This document shows positions 2,105 to 37,135 of a DNA stretch of 61,947 nt, piece by piece. Every line of letters begins with the position of its first letter. Position 1 is the stretch's first letter. The position numbers and the translations under genes are program-made. A model generated the notes under the pieces. That model was not told where the DNA came from. It ran no database searches and saw only the letters and a list, made by a program, of their open reading frames with translations. The stretch lies in contig JBGPZT010000001.1 of the NCBI GenBank assembly GCA_041493915.1, forward strand, positions 1 through 61,947. Direction: 5' to 3'. Source of the stretch: Candidatus Limnocylindria bacterium (lineage in GTDB: Bacteria > Chloroflexota > Limnocylindria > P2-11E).

Positions 2105-2707
2105 GTGAGGTTCCGGAGCGCGTTGTTCCTCGTCGCCGTCCTCGCCTGCGCCGCGCCGGCCCCGGCACCGAGCGGCTCGCCCGCACGCGCGGTGCGCGGC
2201 GCGCCGCAGAACGTGATCCTCCAGGCCGCCGACGTGCCCGCCGACTACGCGATCGAGAAGGACGAGGAGATGAGTCCGGACGACCTGGCCAACGGTCTCG
2301 GCACGACGCCCGCCGAGCTGAAACAGCGGCTGGCGTTCGGCTACGTGCGCGCGTTCGCCAAGACCGGCGACCCATTCGTCTGCTGCGCGATCGACTCCAT
2401 CCTCATCACGACCGCCGACGAGGCCGCGGCGCTCACGACGGCCAACGAGTTCCGCACGCGGGCGCTGGAGCTCGGATCGATCGAGACCGACCTTGGCGAG
2501 ACCATCGGCGACGAGTCGCGCGCGTTCACGTTCCAGCAGCCCACGGCCGACAGCGTGCTCATCACGCTCACGGTCCTGTTTCGCTACGCCAACGTCGTCG
2601 ACGCCGTCGAGGTGACCGGGCGGATAGGCTCGTTCGAACGCGCGTACGTCCTCGAATTCGCCAAGAAGCAGCTCGAGCGGCTCCGCGCGGACGCCGACAA
2701 GCGCTGA
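2105..2707 (+). CDS. hypothetical secreted protein or lipoprotein
   Basis: An in-frame GTG at 2105 gives MRFRSALFLVAVLACAAP, a signal peptide with a lipobox-like LAC. High GC3. No recognisable domain. Confidence 0.5.
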   Translation: MRFRSALFLVAVLACAAPAPAPSGSPARAVRGAPQNVILQAADVPADYAIEKDEEMSPDDLANGLGTTPAELKQRLAFGYVRAFAKTGDPFVCCAIDSILITTADEAAALTTANEFRTRALELGSIETDLGETIGDESRAFTFQQPTADSVLITLTVLFRYANVVDAVEVTGRIGSFERAYVLEFAKKQLERLRADADKR

Positions 2708-2729
2708 TGCCAGACTGGACGGCGCGCCG

Positions 2730-3833
2730 ATGAAGTTCCCCGTCTTCGACATGGAGCGCATGCAGTCCACCTGGGAGCACCGGGTCAAGTACGACCTGTC
2801 CGAGTCCGGGGTCGAGGCGTTGACTCTCGAAGAGATCACGAGAGATCAGAAGGAGCTCATGCGCTCCAAGCTCGGATACGCGGAGGGCGTCGGGCGTGAG
2901 CCGACGCGCGCGCTGGTCGCCGGCTTCCATTCCGGCAGCGACGCGAAGAACGTGCTCATCACCACCGGGACCAGCGAGGCGAACTTCCTCGCGCTCGTGA
3001 CGCTCGTCTCGGCCAGCGACGAGGTCGTGGTCGTGATGCCGAACTACATGCAGGTGCACGGGATCGCGCAGGGCCTCGGTGCACGGGTGCGCGAGGTGTG
3101 GCTGCGCGAGGAGCGCGGTTGGCGCATCGATCTCGACGCGCTCACGGCTGCGGTGAACGAGCGCACCAAGGTCATCTGCGTTTGCACGCCCAATAACCCG
3201 ACCGGGCAGGTGCTGTCGCGCAGCGAGATCGACCGCGTCGTCGCGATCGCGGCGAAGCACGGCGTGTGGATCCTGTCCGACGAGGTCTATCGCGGCGCGG
3301 AGCTCGACAGCGTTGAGAGCGCATCGTTCTCGGGACGCGGCGAGCGGATCGTCGTCACCGGCGGGCTCTCCAAGGTGTACGGGCTTCCGGGCCTGCGCAT
3401 CGGCTGGCTCGTGGCGCCGGAGGCGGAGGCCCAGGCCGCGCTGCGTCTCAAGGACTACACGACGATCGCGCCGGCGACGCTCTCCGAATCGCTGGCCGAG
3501 ATCGCGCTCGAGCGGCGCGACGAGCTCCTCAAGCGCGCGCGCTTCATCCTCGGCGAGCGGTGGCCGAAGCTCGAGGACTGGGCGGCGACGCACTCGCGCG
3601 AGCTCCACTGGACGCCGCCGCAGGCCGGCGGCATCTGCTTCTTCAGCTATCGCTTCCCGAGCGAGTCGATGGCGCTCGTCGACCGGCTCATCCGCGAGTA
3701 CTCGACCATGGTCGTGCCGGGCATCCACTTCCGGGCCGAACGGCACCTGCGCATCGGCTACGGAATGGAGCCGCGGATCCTGCACGCCGGCCTGGCCGCT
3801 TTCGACCGCTTGCTCGCTTCGCTCGGGGACTAG
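2730..3833 (+). CDS. class I/II PLP-dependent aminotransferase
   Basis: CTPNNPTGQV and SKVYGLPGLRIGW (PLP-lysine motif) over a full-length 367-aa fold-type I pattern. Confidence 0.85.
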   Translation: MKFPVFDMERMQSTWEHRVKYDLSESGVEALTLEEITRDQKELMRSKLGYAEGVGREPTRALVAGFHSGSDAKNVLITTGTSEANFLALVTLVSASDEVVVVMPNYMQVHGIAQGLGARVREVWLREERGWRIDLDALTAAVNERTKVICVCTPNNPTGQVLSRSEIDRVVAIAAKHGVWILSDEVYRGAELDSVESASFSGRGERIVVTGGLSKVYGLPGLRIGWLVAPEAEAQAALRLKDYTTIAPATLSESLAEIALERRDELLKRARFILGERWPKLEDWAATHSRELHWTPPQAGGICFFSYRFPSESMALVDRLIREYSTMVVPGIHFRAERHLRIGYGMEPRILHAGLAAFDRLLASLGD

Positions 3834-8821: not shown

Positions 8822-8915
8822 CACCAAGGTCGCACCGCGGACGCGTGGCCTCCGGGCTGCGCGTCCGCGTTCGCGTGTCCGCAGTAAGCGGTACACTCGG
8901 AGCGACAACTTAATA

Positions 8916-9003
8916 CGACGGGGGAGCGCCCACGCGGGCGCTGAGAGTGCGGTGGACCGCAGACCCCAGAACCTGATCTGAGTAATGTCAGCGTAGGGAG
9001 TCG
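8916..9003 (+). promoter_or_regulatory. TPP (THI-box) riboswitch aptamer
   Basis: CGACGGGGGAGC...GCTGAGAG...GACCCCAGAACCTGATCTGAGTAATGTCAGCGTAGGGAGTCG matches the THI element core (CUGAGA, ACC..GAACCUGAUC, AAU..CAGCGUAGGGA). P1 is CGAC/GTCG. Confidence 0.85.
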
Positions 9004-9022
9004 GAACGCGTGAGACCTCGCT

Positions 9023-32262: not shown

Positions 32263-34379
32263 CGGTCGGACGCCGCCTGGTCGGAGGCCACCGGTGCGAT
32301 GCGCGCGATCCGGTCTTCCGGATATGGGATGCGCTCGTGGTACACGCCCAGGAGGAGTTCGCAGAACGCGTCCTTGATCCGCTGGATATCGCGCAGGGTC
32401 AGATCGCATTCGTCGAGCTGACCTTCCGCCAGACGGTCGCTGACGATCCTCTCGACCATCACGCGGATCGTCTCCGCCTTCTTCTCCGCAAGCGAGCGTA
32501 CCGACGCCTCGGTGCCGTCCGCGAGCATCACGATGCCGGCTTCCTTCGTGCGCGGTCGCGGGCCTGGGTAATGGAAGGCCGCTTCGTCCGGGTTCTGGCC
32601 ACGCTGCTGCGCGAGCTGGTAGAAGTACTTCACGACGCTGGTGCCGTGATGCGCGGGGATCATCTCGCGGATCATCGGTGGCAAGTGGTAGCGCTCCGCG
32701 AGCGCGAGGCCGTCGCGGACATGAGCCGCGACGATGCCCGCGGACACCATCGGGTCGAGCTCGTCGTGTGGGTTGGTGCCGGTCTGGTTCTCGATGAACG
32801 CCGACGGGTTACGCATCTTGCCGATGTCGTGGTAGTACGCGCCCACGCGCGCGACGAGCGGATCGGCGCCGATCACCTCGGCCGCGCGCTCGGCGAGGTT
32901 CGCGACGAGCAGCGAGTGGTGATACGTGCCGGGCGTGCGCAGCAATAGCTGCCGCAACAGCGGATGGTTCGGATCCGCGAGCTCGCGCAGCTCGAAGACC
33001 GTGGTGATCCGGAACAGGTGGCCGAAGATCGCCGTGCCCGCGAAGGCGAGCAGGCCGGAGCCCGCGCCACTCAAGAGCGCCGCGATCGCGAGCTGCGCCG
33101 CGCCGACCGGGTCGGTGGACTGGCCGACGAGCGTGAACGCGACGACCACACCGAGGTTGCCGAGCGCGACAGAGCCCGCGCCTGTCGCGAACTCGCGCGC
33201 CGTCGTGGCACGGCGGACCGCGGCCATCCCCAGCAGCGCGGGCACGAGGACGTACGCGACGAGCTCCACCTGGCCGGACAGGATCCCGACGTGCAGCGCG
33301 CCTGCGATCTGCGTCGCGAGCGCGGTGCGCCCGCCGACGAGCACGGTGATGATCATCGCGACAGCCGCAAAGGGGATGAAGTAGACGAGGAGCGTGTGGC
33401 CCGGTACGAGCACGCGCGCCGCGACAGTGACGGCGAGCAGCGAGAGCGCGACGACGATCATCCTGCTGTCGTCGTTCCAGGCTTCGGTCGCGTAACGCTC
33501 CACGAACAGCGCCAGCACCGCCGCGATGAGCACCGCCCACAGCGTCAGGCCGACCGCGCCCGGCCAGTCGATGCCGGTGTTCACGAGACCGAGCACGCGC
33601 AGCTTCTCGACGTCGAGCTCGCTCACGACGGTGCTCTCGCGCACGACGACCTCGCCGGCCACGACCTGGACCTGCACCGGCTGGACGCCGCTGCGCGCCG
33701 CCTGCTGCGCGGTCGCCGTCTGGATCGGATCGAGCGCGACGTCCGCCTCGACGAACTGCCGCACCAGCTCGGCGCCGACGGTCTTCTGGCGGTCGGTCCA
33801 CGCCGGCGGCAGCGACGTCGCGGCCGCGGACCTGGCGCCTTCGAGCTGCTCCGGACGGATGCCGGGCTGATAGAGCGTGCGCAGCGCGTTATCCACCTCC
33901 TTCGAGACCGCGTCCCATTCGGCGCCGGTCATGTCGACCACGAGCGGCGCGAGCACAGGGCTGATCGCGACCTCGGTGAGGCGCGTGAGCGAGGTGATGC
34001 GCTGCTCCCTCGTCTGGGCCGTGTCGGCGCGGACGCGGCCGATCGCGGCGACCGTCTGCGCCAGCCGGTCGCGCGAGCTCGCGACGACGGCCGGGTTGCG
34101 CGTGTACACCTTGGCCACCGCCGCGCCGGCACGCTCGCGCTCGGCCTCGGTGAGCGTCTCGGACACGAACGCCACGGAACGCGGCGCCTTCACGGTGCGG
34201 TCGGCGAGCGTCCCGACGTCGTAGCTGACCGTCGCCGGTGGCGACAGAAGCAGCGCGACCGAGGTGAGGAGCCCGGTGACGATGACAAAGACGTACATCC
34301 GCGCCGACGTCGTGCCGAGCATCTTGCGGAGCGCGACGGGCAGCTGATCGATCCGTCGGCCTGCCGGTAGTCGGATCAC
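32259..34379 (-). CDS. pgpH: 7TM-receptor HD-domain phosphohydrolase (PgpH/YqfF-like)
   Basis: Extracellular N-domain, 7 TM helices, and a C-terminal HD domain (HHSLLVANLAE...YYHDIGK). GTGA overlap with phoH. Confidence 0.85.
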   Translation of the reverse strand: MIRLPAGRRIDQLPVALRKMLGTTSARMYVFVIVTGLLTSVALLLSPPATVSYDVGTLADRTVKAPRSVAFVSETLTEAERERAGAAVAKVYTRNPAVVASSRDRLAQTVAAIGRVRADTAQTREQRITSLTRLTEVAISPVLAPLVVDMTGAEWDAVSKEVDNALRTLYQPGIRPEQLEGARSAAATSLPPAWTDRQKTVGAELVRQFVEADVALDPIQTATAQQAARSGVQPVQVQVVAGEVVVRESTVVSELDVEKLRVLGLVNTGIDWPGAVGLTLWAVLIAAVLALFVERYATEAWNDDSRMIVVALSLLAVTVAARVLVPGHTLLVYFIPFAAVAMIITVLVGGRTALATQIAGALHVGILSGQVELVAYVLVPALLGMAAVRRATTAREFATGAGSVALGNLGVVVAFTLVGQSTDPVGAAQLAIAALLSGAGSGLLAFAGTAIFGHLFRITTVFELRELADPNHPLLRQLLLRTPGTYHHSLLVANLAERAAEVIGADPLVARVGAYYHDIGKMRNPSAFIENQTGTNPHDELDPMVSAGIVAAHVRDGLALAERYHLPPMIREMIPAHHGTSVVKYFYQLAQQRGQNPDEAAFHYPGPRPRTKEAGIVMLADGTEASVRSLAEKKAETIRVMVERIVSDRLAEGQLDECDLTLRDIQRIKDAFCELLLGVYHERIPYPEDRIARIAPVASDQAASDR

Positions 34380-36412
34380 TTCTTTTCGTGCCGATCGTAC
34401 GCCCGAACGATCCGCGCAACGAGCTCGTGGCGAACGACATCGCGCTCGTCGAAATCGACGAAGGCGATGCCATCGACATCCCGCAGGATCTCGCGCGCGA
34501 CGACCAGGCCGGAGCCCTGGTCGCGCGCGAGGTCGACCTGCGTGATGTCGCCGTTCACGACGGCCTGCGAGGCGTAGCCGAGGCGTGTGAGGAACATCTT
34601 CATCTGCGCCGGCGTCGCGTTCTGGGCCTCGTCGAGGATGATGAAGGCCTCATTAAGCGTGTTGTGCGTGACGAGGAAGTCGTCCGTGACGTACAGGGAG
34701 TCCTCGGCTGCCACCTTGATGCAGACCGTTTCCTCCTCGCCGGCAGGCGCGATGCTGTCAATGAATCGCATGGGTCGGCCGCCTCCTGTGGCGCCGTAGA
34801 TCTCGCGCTTCCGCGCCAGCCGGAACGGTTGCAGCTTCCGCGGCAGACGGATGCCGACGACGTACGCGTCCGAGCGATGCACGACGGCCCGTCCTCGTGC
34901 GCGCCCTGGCACGCGGCCGGCGGCGGGCCGCTTCCGCCAGTACGCGACACCGCCCAGCGAGCGAACGAGGAATACGACGTCATCCTTCAGCCGTGGCGAA
35001 GTCGTGACATATTCGATCCGGCAGCTTCGCCCCTCCTGGGTGACCGGCCCTCCGTCCGTGTCGAGCAAGCCCTGGAGCACCGCGACCCGCGTCTCAGCGG
35101 AGTTGTAGAGGTACTCGTCGGGAACGAATTTGTCCGCGGAGTGGCGGCCGGCCAGCCGGAGCTCCCGAAGGACGACTGTCACGGGATTCGCGATCCTTCG
35201 ACCGCCGTGTCCACCGTACTTGTGGCGCAGCACGTAGTCGATCTCGTTCTTCCGAACGAGCTCGATCTTCGGAAGCCTCGCCTCGAGGGCGACCGCAAGC
35301 TCGGTATCGGCGGTCGTGAACATCGGTGTCGTGGATGTCGTGATGCATCCGTCACCGAGAAGCAGCCCGAGCGCGTACGGATCCATCTGAACGTCTCGTC
35401 GCTCAAATTCGACCGGCCGTGACACCAAAGGCAGCTCGAAGCGGTGCTGGTGCGCCGCCCGCAGGCGACCGACCATCTCGCGAGTCTCGAGGAGGCGCAT
35501 CGGTTTGCCGCGCCGTCGGTCATCTGGTGTCGTGACAGCCCAGAGATGCTCGGCACAAGAAAGCGCGGACGCCCCGTCCTGCGTCTGGACGCGGAACACC
35601 GATTTCCGACCTTGGGGATACACGCCCATCACTGGCGTTGGACGTCCGTCGGACCCGATCACGAGATCGCCGACCGCGAGAGTGCCGATGGGTCGAAAAC
35701 CCGATGGCGTCAGCACCTTGCTGAAGCGCGGCTGCGCACGTCCCCGCATGAACGCCAGCGGCGCGACCTCGATCTCGCCGCGCTCCATCGCCCGCGTAAA
35801 GCGCTCTGGGGGCATGAGCTCGTACAGCGCGTCGTACAGCGGGCGGAGATAGGGATCGATCTTCTCCGTGAGGTCGCCGGGAAGGAAGCCGAGCCGCTCC
35901 CCCGCCTCGACCGCCGGCCGCGTGAGGATGAGGCGCGCGACCTTGCGATCGCGCAGCGCGGCGACACCCAGCGCCACAGCCAAATAGGACTTTCCTGTGC
36001 CGGCGGGCCCTGTCGCGAACACCAGGTCGTGATTGCGGATGGCGTCGACGTAGCGGTGCTGGTTGACGGACTGCGGCGTGATGCGCTTTCCACGGACGGT
36101 CGTCGCGACGACTTCGCGCAGCTGCTCGGGCGCGCCCACCGGCGCCTCTTTCGCGTCGCCGATGAGCCGCTCCAGCGCCGGCTTGCGCAGATTGTCGTCG
36201 CGATCGGACAGCGTGCGCATCGCGCCGACGAGCTCGCCGACGCGGGCGACGTTCGCGGGCTCCCCGGTGATGCGCAGCTCCGCACCGCGCGACACGATCT
36301 TCACCGCGAACTCGCGCTCGATGCGATCGATGTTCGTGTCGTTGTTCCCAGTGACGAACATCATCTCCTCCGGGTCGGGTATGAGGATCGTGATCTGCGC
36401 GGAAGCGCTCAC
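34376..36412 (-). CDS. phoH: PhoH-like ATPase interrupted by an intein
   Basis: KH-like N-terminus, Walker A GPAGTGKS, then ...APLAFMRGR | 359-aa insert | TLNEAFIILDEAQN... The exteins alone make a normal 319-aa PhoH. Confidence 0.9.
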   Translation of the reverse strand: MSASAQITILIPDPEEMMFVTGNNDTNIDRIEREFAVKIVSRGAELRITGEPANVARVGELVGAMRTLSDRDDNLRKPALERLIGDAKEAPVGAPEQLREVVATTVRGKRITPQSVNQHRYVDAIRNHDLVFATGPAGTGKSYLAVALGVAALRDRKVARLILTRPAVEAGERLGFLPGDLTEKIDPYLRPLYDALYELMPPERFTRAMERGEIEVAPLAFMRGRAQPRFSKVLTPSGFRPIGTLAVGDLVIGSDGRPTPVMGVYPQGRKSVFRVQTQDGASALSCAEHLWAVTTPDDRRRGKPMRLLETREMVGRLRAAHQHRFELPLVSRPVEFERRDVQMDPYALGLLLGDGCITTSTTPMFTTADTELAVALEARLPKIELVRKNEIDYVLRHKYGGHGGRRIANPVTVVLRELRLAGRHSADKFVPDEYLYNSAETRVAVLQGLLDTDGGPVTQEGRSCRIEYVTTSPRLKDDVVFLVRSLGGVAYWRKRPAAGRVPGRARGRAVVHRSDAYVVGIRLPRKLQPFRLARKREIYGATGGGRPMRFIDSIAPAGEEETVCIKVAAEDSLYVTDDFLVTHNTLNEAFIILDEAQNATPAQMKMFLTRLGYASQAVVNGDITQVDLARDQGSGLVVAREILRDVDGIAFVDFDERDVVRHELVARIVRAYDRHEKK
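34661..35737 (-). mobile_element. intein (Hint domain plus LAGLIDADG homing endonuclease), class-3 signature
   Basis: Covers residues 226-584 of PhoH. It starts AQPRFSKVL... (Ala1). Block B is CAEHLW. LAGLIDADG motifs are LGLLLGDGC and LQGLLDTDGG. Block F is ETVCIKV. It ends FLVTHN, followed by Thr+1. Confidence 0.85.
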
Positions 36413-36951
36413 GACGGAGCCTTCTCCTTCAGCGTCGCGGCAACGAGGCCCGCGACCTTCTTGCCGTCTGCGCGGTCCTTCGTCTGCGCGAGCACCTTCG
36501 GCATGACCTTGCCCATGTCGCGCGGACCTGCGGCGCCCGTCTCGGCGATGACGCGCTCGACGATCGCGCGTACCTCGGCGTCCGACATCTGCGTGGGTAG
36601 GTAGGCCTGGACGATCGCGAGCTCCTGCTCTTCCTTGGCCGCGAGCTCGCGGCGGTCGCCCTTGCGGAAGGCGTCGATCGAGTCGCGGCGCATCTTCGCC
36701 TGCTTTTGGAGCACGTCCTGGACCGCGACGTCGTCGAGGTCGGCCGGACGATGCTCGGCGACGTACGCCTGCCGCGACGCTTCGTCCTTGCCCTCCGCGC
36801 TCAAGCGCTCGATCGTCGACTGGAGACGGTCGACGCCCTCGCGCTGGACCGCGGCCAGCACGAAACGCAGGGTGTCACGGCGGAACGTGTCGCCCGATTT
36901 CATGGCGGCCCGAACATCGCTCTCGAGCCTTTGTCTCAGAGGGGATGCGAT
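36409..36951 (-). CDS. yqeY: GatB/YqeY domain protein
   Basis: LRQRLESDVRAAMKSGD...LRFVLAAV... aligns from residue 3 of the Bacillus YqeY N-terminus (MSLLERLNQDMKLYMK). The first ATG (36903) is 12-16 codons too late. ATC 36951 has GGAGAG 7 nt upstream, and CTG 36939 is an alternative. Confidence 0.8.
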   Translation of the reverse strand: MASPLRQRLESDVRAAMKSGDTFRRDTLRFVLAAVQREGVDRLQSTIERLSAEGKDEASRQAYVAEHRPADLDDVAVQDVLQKQAKMRRDSIDAFRKGDRRELAAKEEQELAIVQAYLPTQMSDAEVRAIVERVIAETGAAGPRDMGKVMPKVLAQTKDRADGKKVAGLVAATLKEKAPS

Positions 36952-36967
36952 GCCTGGGCTCTCCGAC

Positions 36968-37135
36968 CTAACGCTTGCGCCGCTTGGCTTCCTTGCGCTT
37001 GCGACGTGCGGCGGGGCGCTCGTAGAACTCGCGGCGGCGGGCTTCCGCGAGGATCCCGGCTTGCTGGATCTTCTTGTTGAATCGGCGAAGAGCGGCCTCG
37101 AACGACTCGCCATCGCCAACGATCACTTCAGACAA
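36968..37135 (-). CDS. rpsU: 30S ribosomal protein S21
   Basis: The TTG start gives [55 protein letters not shown], colinear with bacterial bS21. A GTG alternative lies at 37150. Confidence 0.85.

Follow-up and report, generated by a model that had tools for sequence, protein, structure and literature searches.

The analyzed window, i.e., the whole stretch of 61,947 nucleotides, contains on its minus strand a phoH precursor open reading frame (34376..36412) that encodes 678 amino acids plus a stop codon and comprises an N-extein, an intein, and a C-extein. The encoded protein matched the Pfam PhoH profile with E = 1.2e-86, although in two separate stretches, the first of which stopped at profile position 117. 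When the 359 intervening residues were excised in silico, the resulting 319-aa protein gave a single match that spanned positions 2-205 of 205, and the score rose from 289.9 bits for the full protein to 312.2 bits. The N-extein (35738..36412, minus strand; PhoH residues 1-225) carries the Walker A motif GPAGTGKS, ends with ...APLAFMRGR, corresponds to profile positions 2-117, and aligns to the solved PhoH structure 3B85. The C-extein (34376..34660, minus strand; residues 585-678 and the stop codon) starts with TLNEAFIILDEAQN, contains Walker B, and after splicing completes the profile to position 205. The spliced protein aligned with 3B85 without a gap across the MRGR/TLN junction (E = 1e-79; the slash marks the insertion point), which upheld the assertion of the preliminary description that these two pieces are contiguous in ordinary PhoH proteins. 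The full-length domain match, both Walker motifs, and a conserved neighborhood identify the host as a P-loop ATPase of the PhoH (YbeZ) kind. The gene order is yqeY - phoH - 7TM-HD, and in relatives ybeY comes after. Gene callers label the entire 678-aa frame "PhoH."

The insertion point lies between Arg225 and the Thr of MRGR/TLNxAFxxLDEAQN, just upstream of Walker B. The insert (34661..35737, minus strand), whose coordinates had been given exactly in the preliminary description, is an intein of 359 amino acids (precursor residues 226-584, AQPRF...LVTHN), and it constitutes a clean 1077-bp difference from an intein-less allele, L023. As is expected of an intein, it is in frame, it breaks a conserved host protein, and its excision restores a contiguous PhoH. 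It is built as a Hint domain split by a LAGLIDADG endonuclease, and all motifs quoted earlier were present, each on the minus strand. Block A (AQPRFSKVLTPSGFRPIGTLAVGDLV; 35660..35737) begins with Ala1 (35735-35737), a non-nucleophilic first residue, and the block B core CAEHLW (35540..35557) provides Cys61 (B:7), His64 (B:10), and, at B:12, Trp66, the first member of the Trp-Cys-Thr (WCT) triplet. The homing endonuclease domain (34826..35422, intein residues ~106-304) includes LAGLIDADG motif 1, LGLLLGDGC (35345..35371), with the catalytic Asp129, and motif 2, LQGLLDTDGG (35048..35077), with the catalytic Asp228. The block F core TVCIKV (34712..34729) contributes Cys339 (F:4), which is predicted to start the reaction as its nucleophile and to form the first branch point, and block G, FLVTHN followed by Thr+1 (34658..34678), supplies Thr357 (G:5), His358, Asn359, and the C-extein residue Thr585. 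A search of the window for a second intein found none.

On the insert, Pfam LAGLIDADG_3 scored 35.5 bits (cutoff 22.5), whereas the Pfam Hint models stayed under their cutoffs (Hint_2, 17.8 versus 28.4); it is from PDB sequence matches and from the predicted fold that the Hint domain was assigned. The former comprised gp41-1 (E = 1.6e-9), the class 3 inteins MchDnaB1 and Msm DnaBi1, and PI-SceI. The AlphaFold2 model of the intein (pLDDT 84.7, pTM 0.87) had PI-SceI, TliVMA, and PI-PfuI as its best Foldseek matches; its Hint part matched 6RIZ, 6RIX, and 6BS8, and its endonuclease part matched PI-SceI, I-DmoI, and PI-PfuI. The insert therefore aligns with the Hint fold by both sequence and predicted structure, with blocks A, B, F, and G, His B:10, and the C-terminal His-Asn all in place, and the endonuclease has two motifs with a catalytic acidic residue each in an alpha-beta-beta-alpha-beta-beta-alpha fold. 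PI-SceI (the VMA1 intein) is the best match in architecture and fold (E = 2e-18, TM 0.67-0.69), but it shares 15-18% sequence identity with the insert, belongs to class 1, carries the residues usually seen in blocks B and F, and was solved with C1S and C+1S substitutions.

Class 3 inteins, the definition and chemistry of which have been described (PMC2807308, PMC3196547, PMC5222942), are recognized by the WCT triplet, i.e., Trp B:12, Cys F:4, and Thr G:5 (PMC2807308, PMC3196547). The set is complete in the insert: a residue other than Ser, Thr, or Cys at position 1 (Ala1), His B:10, Trp B:12, Cys F:4, Thr G:5, the final His-Asn, and Thr at +1. In an alignment with the solved class 3 intein MchDnaB1 (6RIX), Trp66, Cys339, and Thr357 fall on its WCT triplet and H-L-W falls on its H-Q-W; Cys339 also lines up with D107C, the Cys engineered into gp41-1 (6RIZ). 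Conservation was assessed in 97 close homologs with 65-77% identity to the intein. Cys61, His64, Trp66, Cys339, Thr357, His358, and Asn359 were found in all 97, as were the Asp and Gly of both LAGLIDADG motifs. Thr occupied position +1 in 93 sequences and Ser in the other 4, and position 1 was Ala in 81; since the other 16 start with Ser, Ala1 is not a fixed trait of the family. Among the best 150 representatives of 50%-identity clusters, 143 had the WCT triplet. The central claim of the preliminary description, namely a class 3 LAGLIDADG intein placed between MRGR and TLN of PhoH and marked by Ala1, WCT, and Thr+1, was thus supported in all computational tests run.

The class 3 prototype, that of mycobacteriophage Bethlehem DnaB (Tori et al. 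2010, PMC2807308), likewise combines a non-nucleophilic residue 1, WCT, Thr+1, and a LAGLIDADG domain in a P-loop NTPase host. However, it begins with Pro1, has Ser62 at B:7 where a Cys stands here, and sits in the P-loop of DnaB rather than before Walker B, and its splicing was demonstrated experimentally. Msm DnaBi1 (6BS8) and MchDnaB1 (6RIX) have Ala1 and WCT in common with it, and both are detectable by fold and by sequence (for 6RIX, E = 1.5e-7 over blocks A to G); unlike the PhoH intein, they are mini-inteins without an endonuclease and carry Asp at B:7 (DxxH). Homologous inteins also occur in phage terminase, helicase, and SNF2 genes (e.g., Mycobacterium phage Phrappuccino gp2). These class 3 inteins match all 359 amino acids at 35-41% identity and share the AQPL start, WCT, and the LAGLIDADG domain, but they lie mostly in Walker A (after GK and before T or S), and some are followed by Cys+1.

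The suggestion of the preliminary description that PhoH might be a new host for this class was not borne out, since PhoH inteins have been published (PMC6195587, PMC7360933, PMC4760082). Kelley et al. 2018 (Fig. 6a) aligned class 3 inteins of mycobacterial DnaB and PhoH, the latter from M. fortuitum (OBK00716) and M. xenopi (EID13626) (PMC6195587), and a PhoH intein is present in M. smegmatis (PMC7360933). OBK00716 and EID13626 have the same host protein and the same class (WCT) as the present intein and, judging by actinobacterial-type PhoH sequences used as proxies, probably the same insertion site. Novikova et al. 2016 counted 21 PhoH inteins in Actinobacteria and Deinococcus-Thermus and placed PhoH among the common bacterial hosts (PMC4760082); the host here belongs to Chloroflexota, a phylum absent from their list.

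In more than 200 PhoH sequences examined, from several phyla, a homologous intein interrupted the protein at this site, and contigs with an occupied MRGR/T site were labeled Chloroflexota, Acidobacteriota, and Actinomycetota. In the actinobacterial-type PhoH (P0121 and 119 further 90%-identity clusters), the intein was 60-67% identical and occupied the identical MRGR/...THN/TLN site. Two actinobacterial-type PhoH genes, located on three contigs, showed the order rsmE - phoH - ybeY - CNNM, with dnaJ upstream on one of them, which we take to be the Mycobacterium order. In two viral PhoH genes (L030 and L049), an intein of this class lies in the P-loop and not at MRGR/T. By contrast, the best 120 of the nearest database PhoH proteins, which bear Candidatus Limnocylindria names, are 302-319 aa long, 89-97% identical in amino acid sequence, and all intein-less; the placement of the host in Candidatus Limnocylindria follows the names of those with 89-95% identity. 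Alignment with such orthologs, those of 319 aa being up to 97% identical, upheld the extein junction, and none of the 120 contained the segment as a normal domain. The allele L023 shares the gene order yqeY-phoH-7TM-HD and is 93% identical in nucleotide sequence over the spliced gene, with flanking DNA 91-94% identical, whereas in the nearest intein-bearing alleles the exteins are 91-92% identical and the inteins just 74%. Overall, intein and extein identities correlate (r = 0.79), so much of the family history is vertical, and the intein may be missing from the nearest relatives through loss instead of recent gain.

Composition had been described as not obviously different between intein and exteins. 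The GC3 of the intein (0.783) is, however, significantly lower than that of the exteins (0.881; Fisher p = 7e-4) and of the next gene (0.914; p = 7e-9), but since 15% of equal-length sliding windows over the coding-like frames of the window are as low, the value still falls within their range. In 19 other hosts, intein GC3 tracked host GC3 from 0.28 to 0.87, and in 17 of them it was likewise below that of the exteins; foreign composition was therefore rejected as a mark of recent import. The earlier suggestion of long residence holds for the family, which is old in PhoH as indicated by GC3 that follows the hosts, but is not supported for this lineage, in which the 120 nearest orthologs are intein-less, L023 is so similar, and the nearest inteins are so divergent.

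As judged from codon substitutions, both intein domains are under purifying selection: the median dN/dS was 0.12 for the Hint part and also for the endonuclease part, and none of 17 alleles contained a stop codon. With both domains so constrained, the intein looks like a live homing element, the activity of its endonuclease being suggested by conservation. Four synonymous differences from the closest intein-less allele within 9 nucleotides of the junction were considered as a co-conversion tract and dismissed, since the excess is weak and the Arg, Gly, and Asn codons concerned vary among other intein-less alleles as well.

Starting from the observed anatomy, fold, signature residues with their conservation, exact insertion site, and presence or absence in relatives, we infer the chemistry and the endonuclease activity as follows. 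The insert is very probably a full-length class 3 intein (Hint plus LAGLIDADG) of a Candidatus Limnocylindria (Chloroflexota) PhoH that splices and likely homes. By extension from experimentally studied class 3 inteins, the Cys339 (F:4) thiol would attack the Arg225-Ala226 bond and take over the N-extein as a thioester, giving the block F branched intermediate; the Thr+1 hydroxyl would then accept the N-extein, which gives the block G branched intermediate, cyclization of Asn359 would free the intein, and an O-to-N acyl shift would yield the normal 319-aa PhoH. Block F Cys mutants and the branched intermediate have been studied in MP-Be DnaB (PMC2807308) and in three class 3 mini-inteins (PMC5222942). 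The freed 40-kDa protein would most likely act as a homing endonuclease spread by gene conversion, with a predicted cut in intein-less phoH alleles at about ...ATGCGTGGCCGC/ACGCTTAAC..., the cleavage vicinity being also given as CGTGGCCGC/ACGCTTAAC.

Other readings of the locus differ either in how the intein would splice or in whether it does so. In the KlbA-like class 2 route, Thr+1 would attack the N-terminal junction directly and Cys F:4 would be structural only. Ala1 also starts class 2 inteins, but these are defined by the lack of the WCT triplet (PMC2807308), which here is present, invariant, and aligned with that of solved class 3 inteins; moreover, mutation of the F:4 Cys in MP-Be DnaB abolished all splicing and cleavage (PMC2807308), and we consider this route very unlikely. 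Hardly credible is the notion that the intein is dead, or that the insert is a fixed domain unable to splice, with the 678-aa protein working, or being lost, as such. Nothing specific points that way apart from the precedent of the class 3-like Arsp-FB24 Arth_1007, a known pseudogene (PMC3196547); that sequence is without the F:4 Cys, whereas all catalytic residues are intact here. The low dN/dS of the Hint part also speaks against it, as does the position of the insert between conserved PhoH segments beside Walker B in an otherwise 97%-conserved protein, together with orthologs that do not have it as a normal domain.

More weight, though still on the unlikely side, is given to a class 3 intein that can splice but has an endonuclease with no remaining homing function, i.e., a domesticated or vertical passenger that has been kept since its precise deletion from a useful gene is impossible. 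The correlation of intein with extein identities and the way in which intein GC3 follows that of 19 hosts are in line with such a passenger, and a LAGLIDADG Asp has been lost in 5 of the 120 alleles of the actinobacterial group. Against it, the endonuclease is as constrained as the splicing part, the catalytic Asp pair is invariant among the 97 closest homologs, the 120 nearest PhoH orthologs are intein-less, and the intein exceeds the PhoH core in conservation in 75 of 190 allele pairs. A class 3 intein that splices and probably homes hence remains our preferred reading.

This assignment is correct but ordinary: class 3 is the rarer type of intein, yet the PhoH kind is already published and very common in environmental bacteria, and knowledge of intein classes or mechanism is unchanged by it. 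Its main value lies in annotation, as the phoH gene here is neither double-length nor fused, but a normal PhoH broken by a mobile intein. In addition, class 3 inteins are very widespread at the PhoH MRGR/T site, which is polymorphic among near-identical hosts; the endonuclease is under selection, and the system therefore offers a convenient natural case for class 3 homing. According to a 2026 paper, the splicing of PhoH inteins has not been studied so far (PMC13347336), so any allele could be the first test case.

The B:7 position deserves separate mention, because Cys61 forms a CxxH motif where TxxH or DxxH is usual. If it lies near enough to Cys339 (F:4), the two might join in a reversible disulfide or bind a metal, so that PhoH maturation would depend on redox or metal state; we regard this idea as improbable, but if true, the Cys61-Cys339 trap would place a stress-linked ATPase under post-translational control. 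In Msm DnaBi1, zinc and a disulfide between Cys48 and Cys118 exert regulation, and that trap would be analogous to the one proposed here, though structurally different. The actinobacterial group has Ser or Thr at B:7 instead of Cys.

The phoH open reading frame (34376..36412, minus strand) encodes a 678-aa protein, in which the insert starts at residue 226 (AQPRFSKV...) and ends at residue 584 (...FLVTHN), and it is therefore 359 aa long (34661..35737, minus strand). These values exactly match those of the preliminary description, and all motifs quoted there were found in the insert. In the unspliced protein, the Pfam PhoH match was split into two stretches, the first of which ended at profile position 117. 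Once the insert had been cut out in silico, the resulting 319-aa PhoH matched the profile in one stretch (positions 2-205 of 205), the score rose from 289.9 to 312.2 bits, and the spliced sequence aligned without gaps to the solved PhoH of PDB 3B85 across a 23-residue segment, which confirms that the insert interrupts an ordinary PhoH. The ORF upstream of phoH (36409-37119, minus strand), a YqeY homologue, is listed with a TTG start and 236 aa, versus 164 aa in close relatives, and the true yqeY start probably lies further inside it. There are 4-base overlaps between this ORF and the phoH start and between the downstream 7TM-HD gene and the phoH stop, which suggest translational coupling. Elsewhere in the window, a full-length TPP riboswitch (Rfam RF00059) was detected at 8910-9016 (plus strand; 67.4 bits versus a gathering score of 54.3), while no tRNA genes were found across its whole length.

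The insert scored above the cutoff for Pfam LAGLIDADG_3 (35.5 versus 22.5 bits) and below the cutoffs of the Pfam Hint models. In PDB sequence searches, it matched the gp41-1 intein, the best hit being 6RIZ, whose title substitutions (C1A/F65W/D107C) correspond to position 1, B:12, and F:4; the class 3 inteins MchDnaB1 (6RIX, 6RIY) and Msm DnaBi1 (6BS8) were matched as well, and the middle part of the insert matched PI-SceI. An AlphaFold2 model built from 31 input sequences was confident (pLDDT 84.7, pTM 0.87). Compared with the PDB using Foldseek, the whole model retrieved PI-SceI (E = 2e-18, TM 0.67-0.69), TliVMA, and PI-PfuI, and its Hint part retrieved class 3 mini-inteins. In the alignment of a Hint-only construct with 6RIX, which spanned block A to block G, H-Q-W of 6RIX is matched by His64-Leu-Trp66, its block F Cys by Cys339, and its T-H by Thr357-His.

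An intein counts as class 3 when its first residue is not Ser, Thr, or Cys and it carries the WCT triplet (Trp B:12, Cys F:4, and Thr G:5); the +1 residue is usually Thr or Ser (PMC2807308, PMC3196547). The PhoH intein shows every one of these defining features. A comparison of 97 homologous inteins with 65-77% identity showed no change at His B:10, Trp B:12, Cys F:4, Thr G:5, His G:6, and Asn G:7; position 1 was Ala (81/97) or Ser (16/97) and position +1 was Thr (93/97) or Ser (4/97). The class 3 assignment made earlier is correct. When 1.84 billion cluster representatives were searched exhaustively, 18,494 clusters matched at E <= 1e-3, and the triplet was present in 143 of the best 150, the remaining seven being mostly truncated sequences. 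By analogy with experiments on other class 3 inteins (PMC2807308, PMC5222942), Cys F:4 would attack the N-terminal junction, the N-extein would then be moved to Thr+1, and Asn cyclization and an acyl shift would follow.

The preliminary description suggested PhoH as a new host for this class, which is not correct. Kelley et al. 2018 (PMC6195587) aligned four mycobacterial class 3 inteins of DnaB and PhoH, the latter from M. fortuitum and M. xenopi, Woods et al. 2020 (PMC7360933) reported an intein in M. smegmatis PhoH, and Novikova et al. 2016 (PMC4760082) listed 21 PhoH inteins from Actinobacteria and Deinococcus-Thermus; a 2026 paper (PMC13347336) states that an experimental study of PhoH intein splicing is lacking. 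All of the best 120 matches in a collection of 5.8 billion proteins were PhoH carrying this intein, and in the 96 in which both splice junctions (↓) could be located, these read MRGR↓A/S...THN↓T/S. Nineteen genome loci had the intein at exactly the MRGR↓T site; their labels were Chloroflexota, Acidobacteriota (Blastocatellia, Pyrinomonadaceae), and, for a single locus, Heliobacteriaceae. A group of actinobacterial-type PhoH proteins carried a class 3 intein with 60-67% identity at the same site. Three contigs, representing two of these proteins, had the order rsmE-phoH-ybeY-CNNM (with dnaJ upstream in one), which matches that of Mycobacterium, and we infer a link between this group and the published mycobacterial PhoH inteins. 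The window intein, whose host belongs to the Chloroflexota, adds one more member to a kind that is already described and very abundant.

The spliced PhoH was 89-97% identical to its 120 nearest PhoH proteins, which are 302-319 aa long and in several cases named Candidatus Limnocylindria. None of them contained the intein, so the suggestion of a long residence in this lineage was not supported. One of these (L023) has the same yqeY-phoH-7TM-HD order; its DNA shares 94% identity with the window on one side of the insert and 91% on the other, and a clean 1077 bp is the sole length difference. In the nearest intein-bearing alleles, exteins were 91-92% identical but inteins only 74%; overall, intein identity to the window stayed at 67-77% while that of exteins ranged from 49 to 92%, and in 75 of 190 allele pairs, conservation of the intein exceeded that of the PhoH core. 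A clear vertical signal was also present: intein and extein identities were correlated (r = 0.79), and intein GC3 tracked that of the host (0.28 to 0.87) across 19 other hosts, with a lower value in the intein than in the exteins for 17 of them. GC3 of the window intein is likewise below that of its exteins (0.783 versus 0.881, p = 7e-4). No stop codons interrupted the intein in 17 alleles, median dN/dS was 0.12 in the Hint and endonuclease parts alike, and both LAGLIDADG Asp residues were unchanged in the 97 close homologues. Judged from these sequence comparisons, the insert is best read as an old PhoH-associated homing intein, apparently still active, with a mixed history of vertical descent, homing, and loss. 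Next to the junctions (35738-35746 and 34652-34660, minus strand), the window reads CGG GGA CGT ↓ ACG CTT AAT where the intein-less allele closest to it reads CGT GGC CGC ↓ ACG CTT AAC, which makes four synonymous differences in about 100 nt that are otherwise identical. These might mark a short co-conversion tract, but they might also be due to chance, since further alleles without the intein vary there too.

A tblastn search of 50,697 phage records found relatives (35-41% identity) in 864, many of them mycobacteriophages, located in terminase, helicase, and SNF2 genes; both phage inteins inspected (Phrappuccino gp2 and Caudovirales GX15bay) had the WCT triplet. Non-PhoH cluster representatives were SNF2 helicases, some with several inteins. 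The phage and SNF2 relatives match the published picture of class 3 inteins as preferring P-loop NTPases and being of probable phage origin (PMC2807308, PMC3196547). Relatives on viral contigs lay mostly in Walker A (GK↓AQPL...THN↓T/S). Among these, two viral PhoH genes carried a related class 3 intein in the P-loop (GSGK↓AQPL...VTHN↓T; L030 about 2501-3577, L049 about 2501-3583) and not at MRGR↓T, so that at least two PhoH sites harbor class 3 inteins; in one 100-kb viral contig, the MRGR↓T site itself was occupied. When the window junction residues (34658-34660 and 35738-35743) were compared with the Walker A GK↓T/S sites that related inteins occupy in helicase genes and in uncharacterized ORFs of viruses (L022, L027, L029, L032, L056), a Gly-(Lys/Arg)-intein-Thr/Ser context was common to both, which may reflect extein requirements of this lineage. 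The Phrappuccino terminase intein is also preceded by GK but has Cys at +1. Concerning annotation, QBQ74860.1 of GX15bay (MK557849.1; L021 523-3345) contains a class 3 intein and showed no detectable PhoH extein similarity, and its name 'PhoH' seems to have been copied over from the intein. Many intein-bearing phage terminase or helicase genes, so named in GenBank, are 'DarB-like antirestriction' in RefSeq.

The one feature of the window intein that might repay experiment is the Cys at block B:7 (Cys61; 35555-35557, minus strand), which forms a CxxH motif, whereas class 1 inteins have TxxH and Msm DnaBi1 has DxxH. It may lie close to the catalytic Cys F:4 and act as its redox or metal partner, which would put splicing under redox or metal control. 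This Cys was unchanged in all 97 close homologues and present in 85 of the 143 WCT-bearing representatives among the best 150 clusters, and the inteins of the actinobacterial PhoH group have Ser or Thr there.
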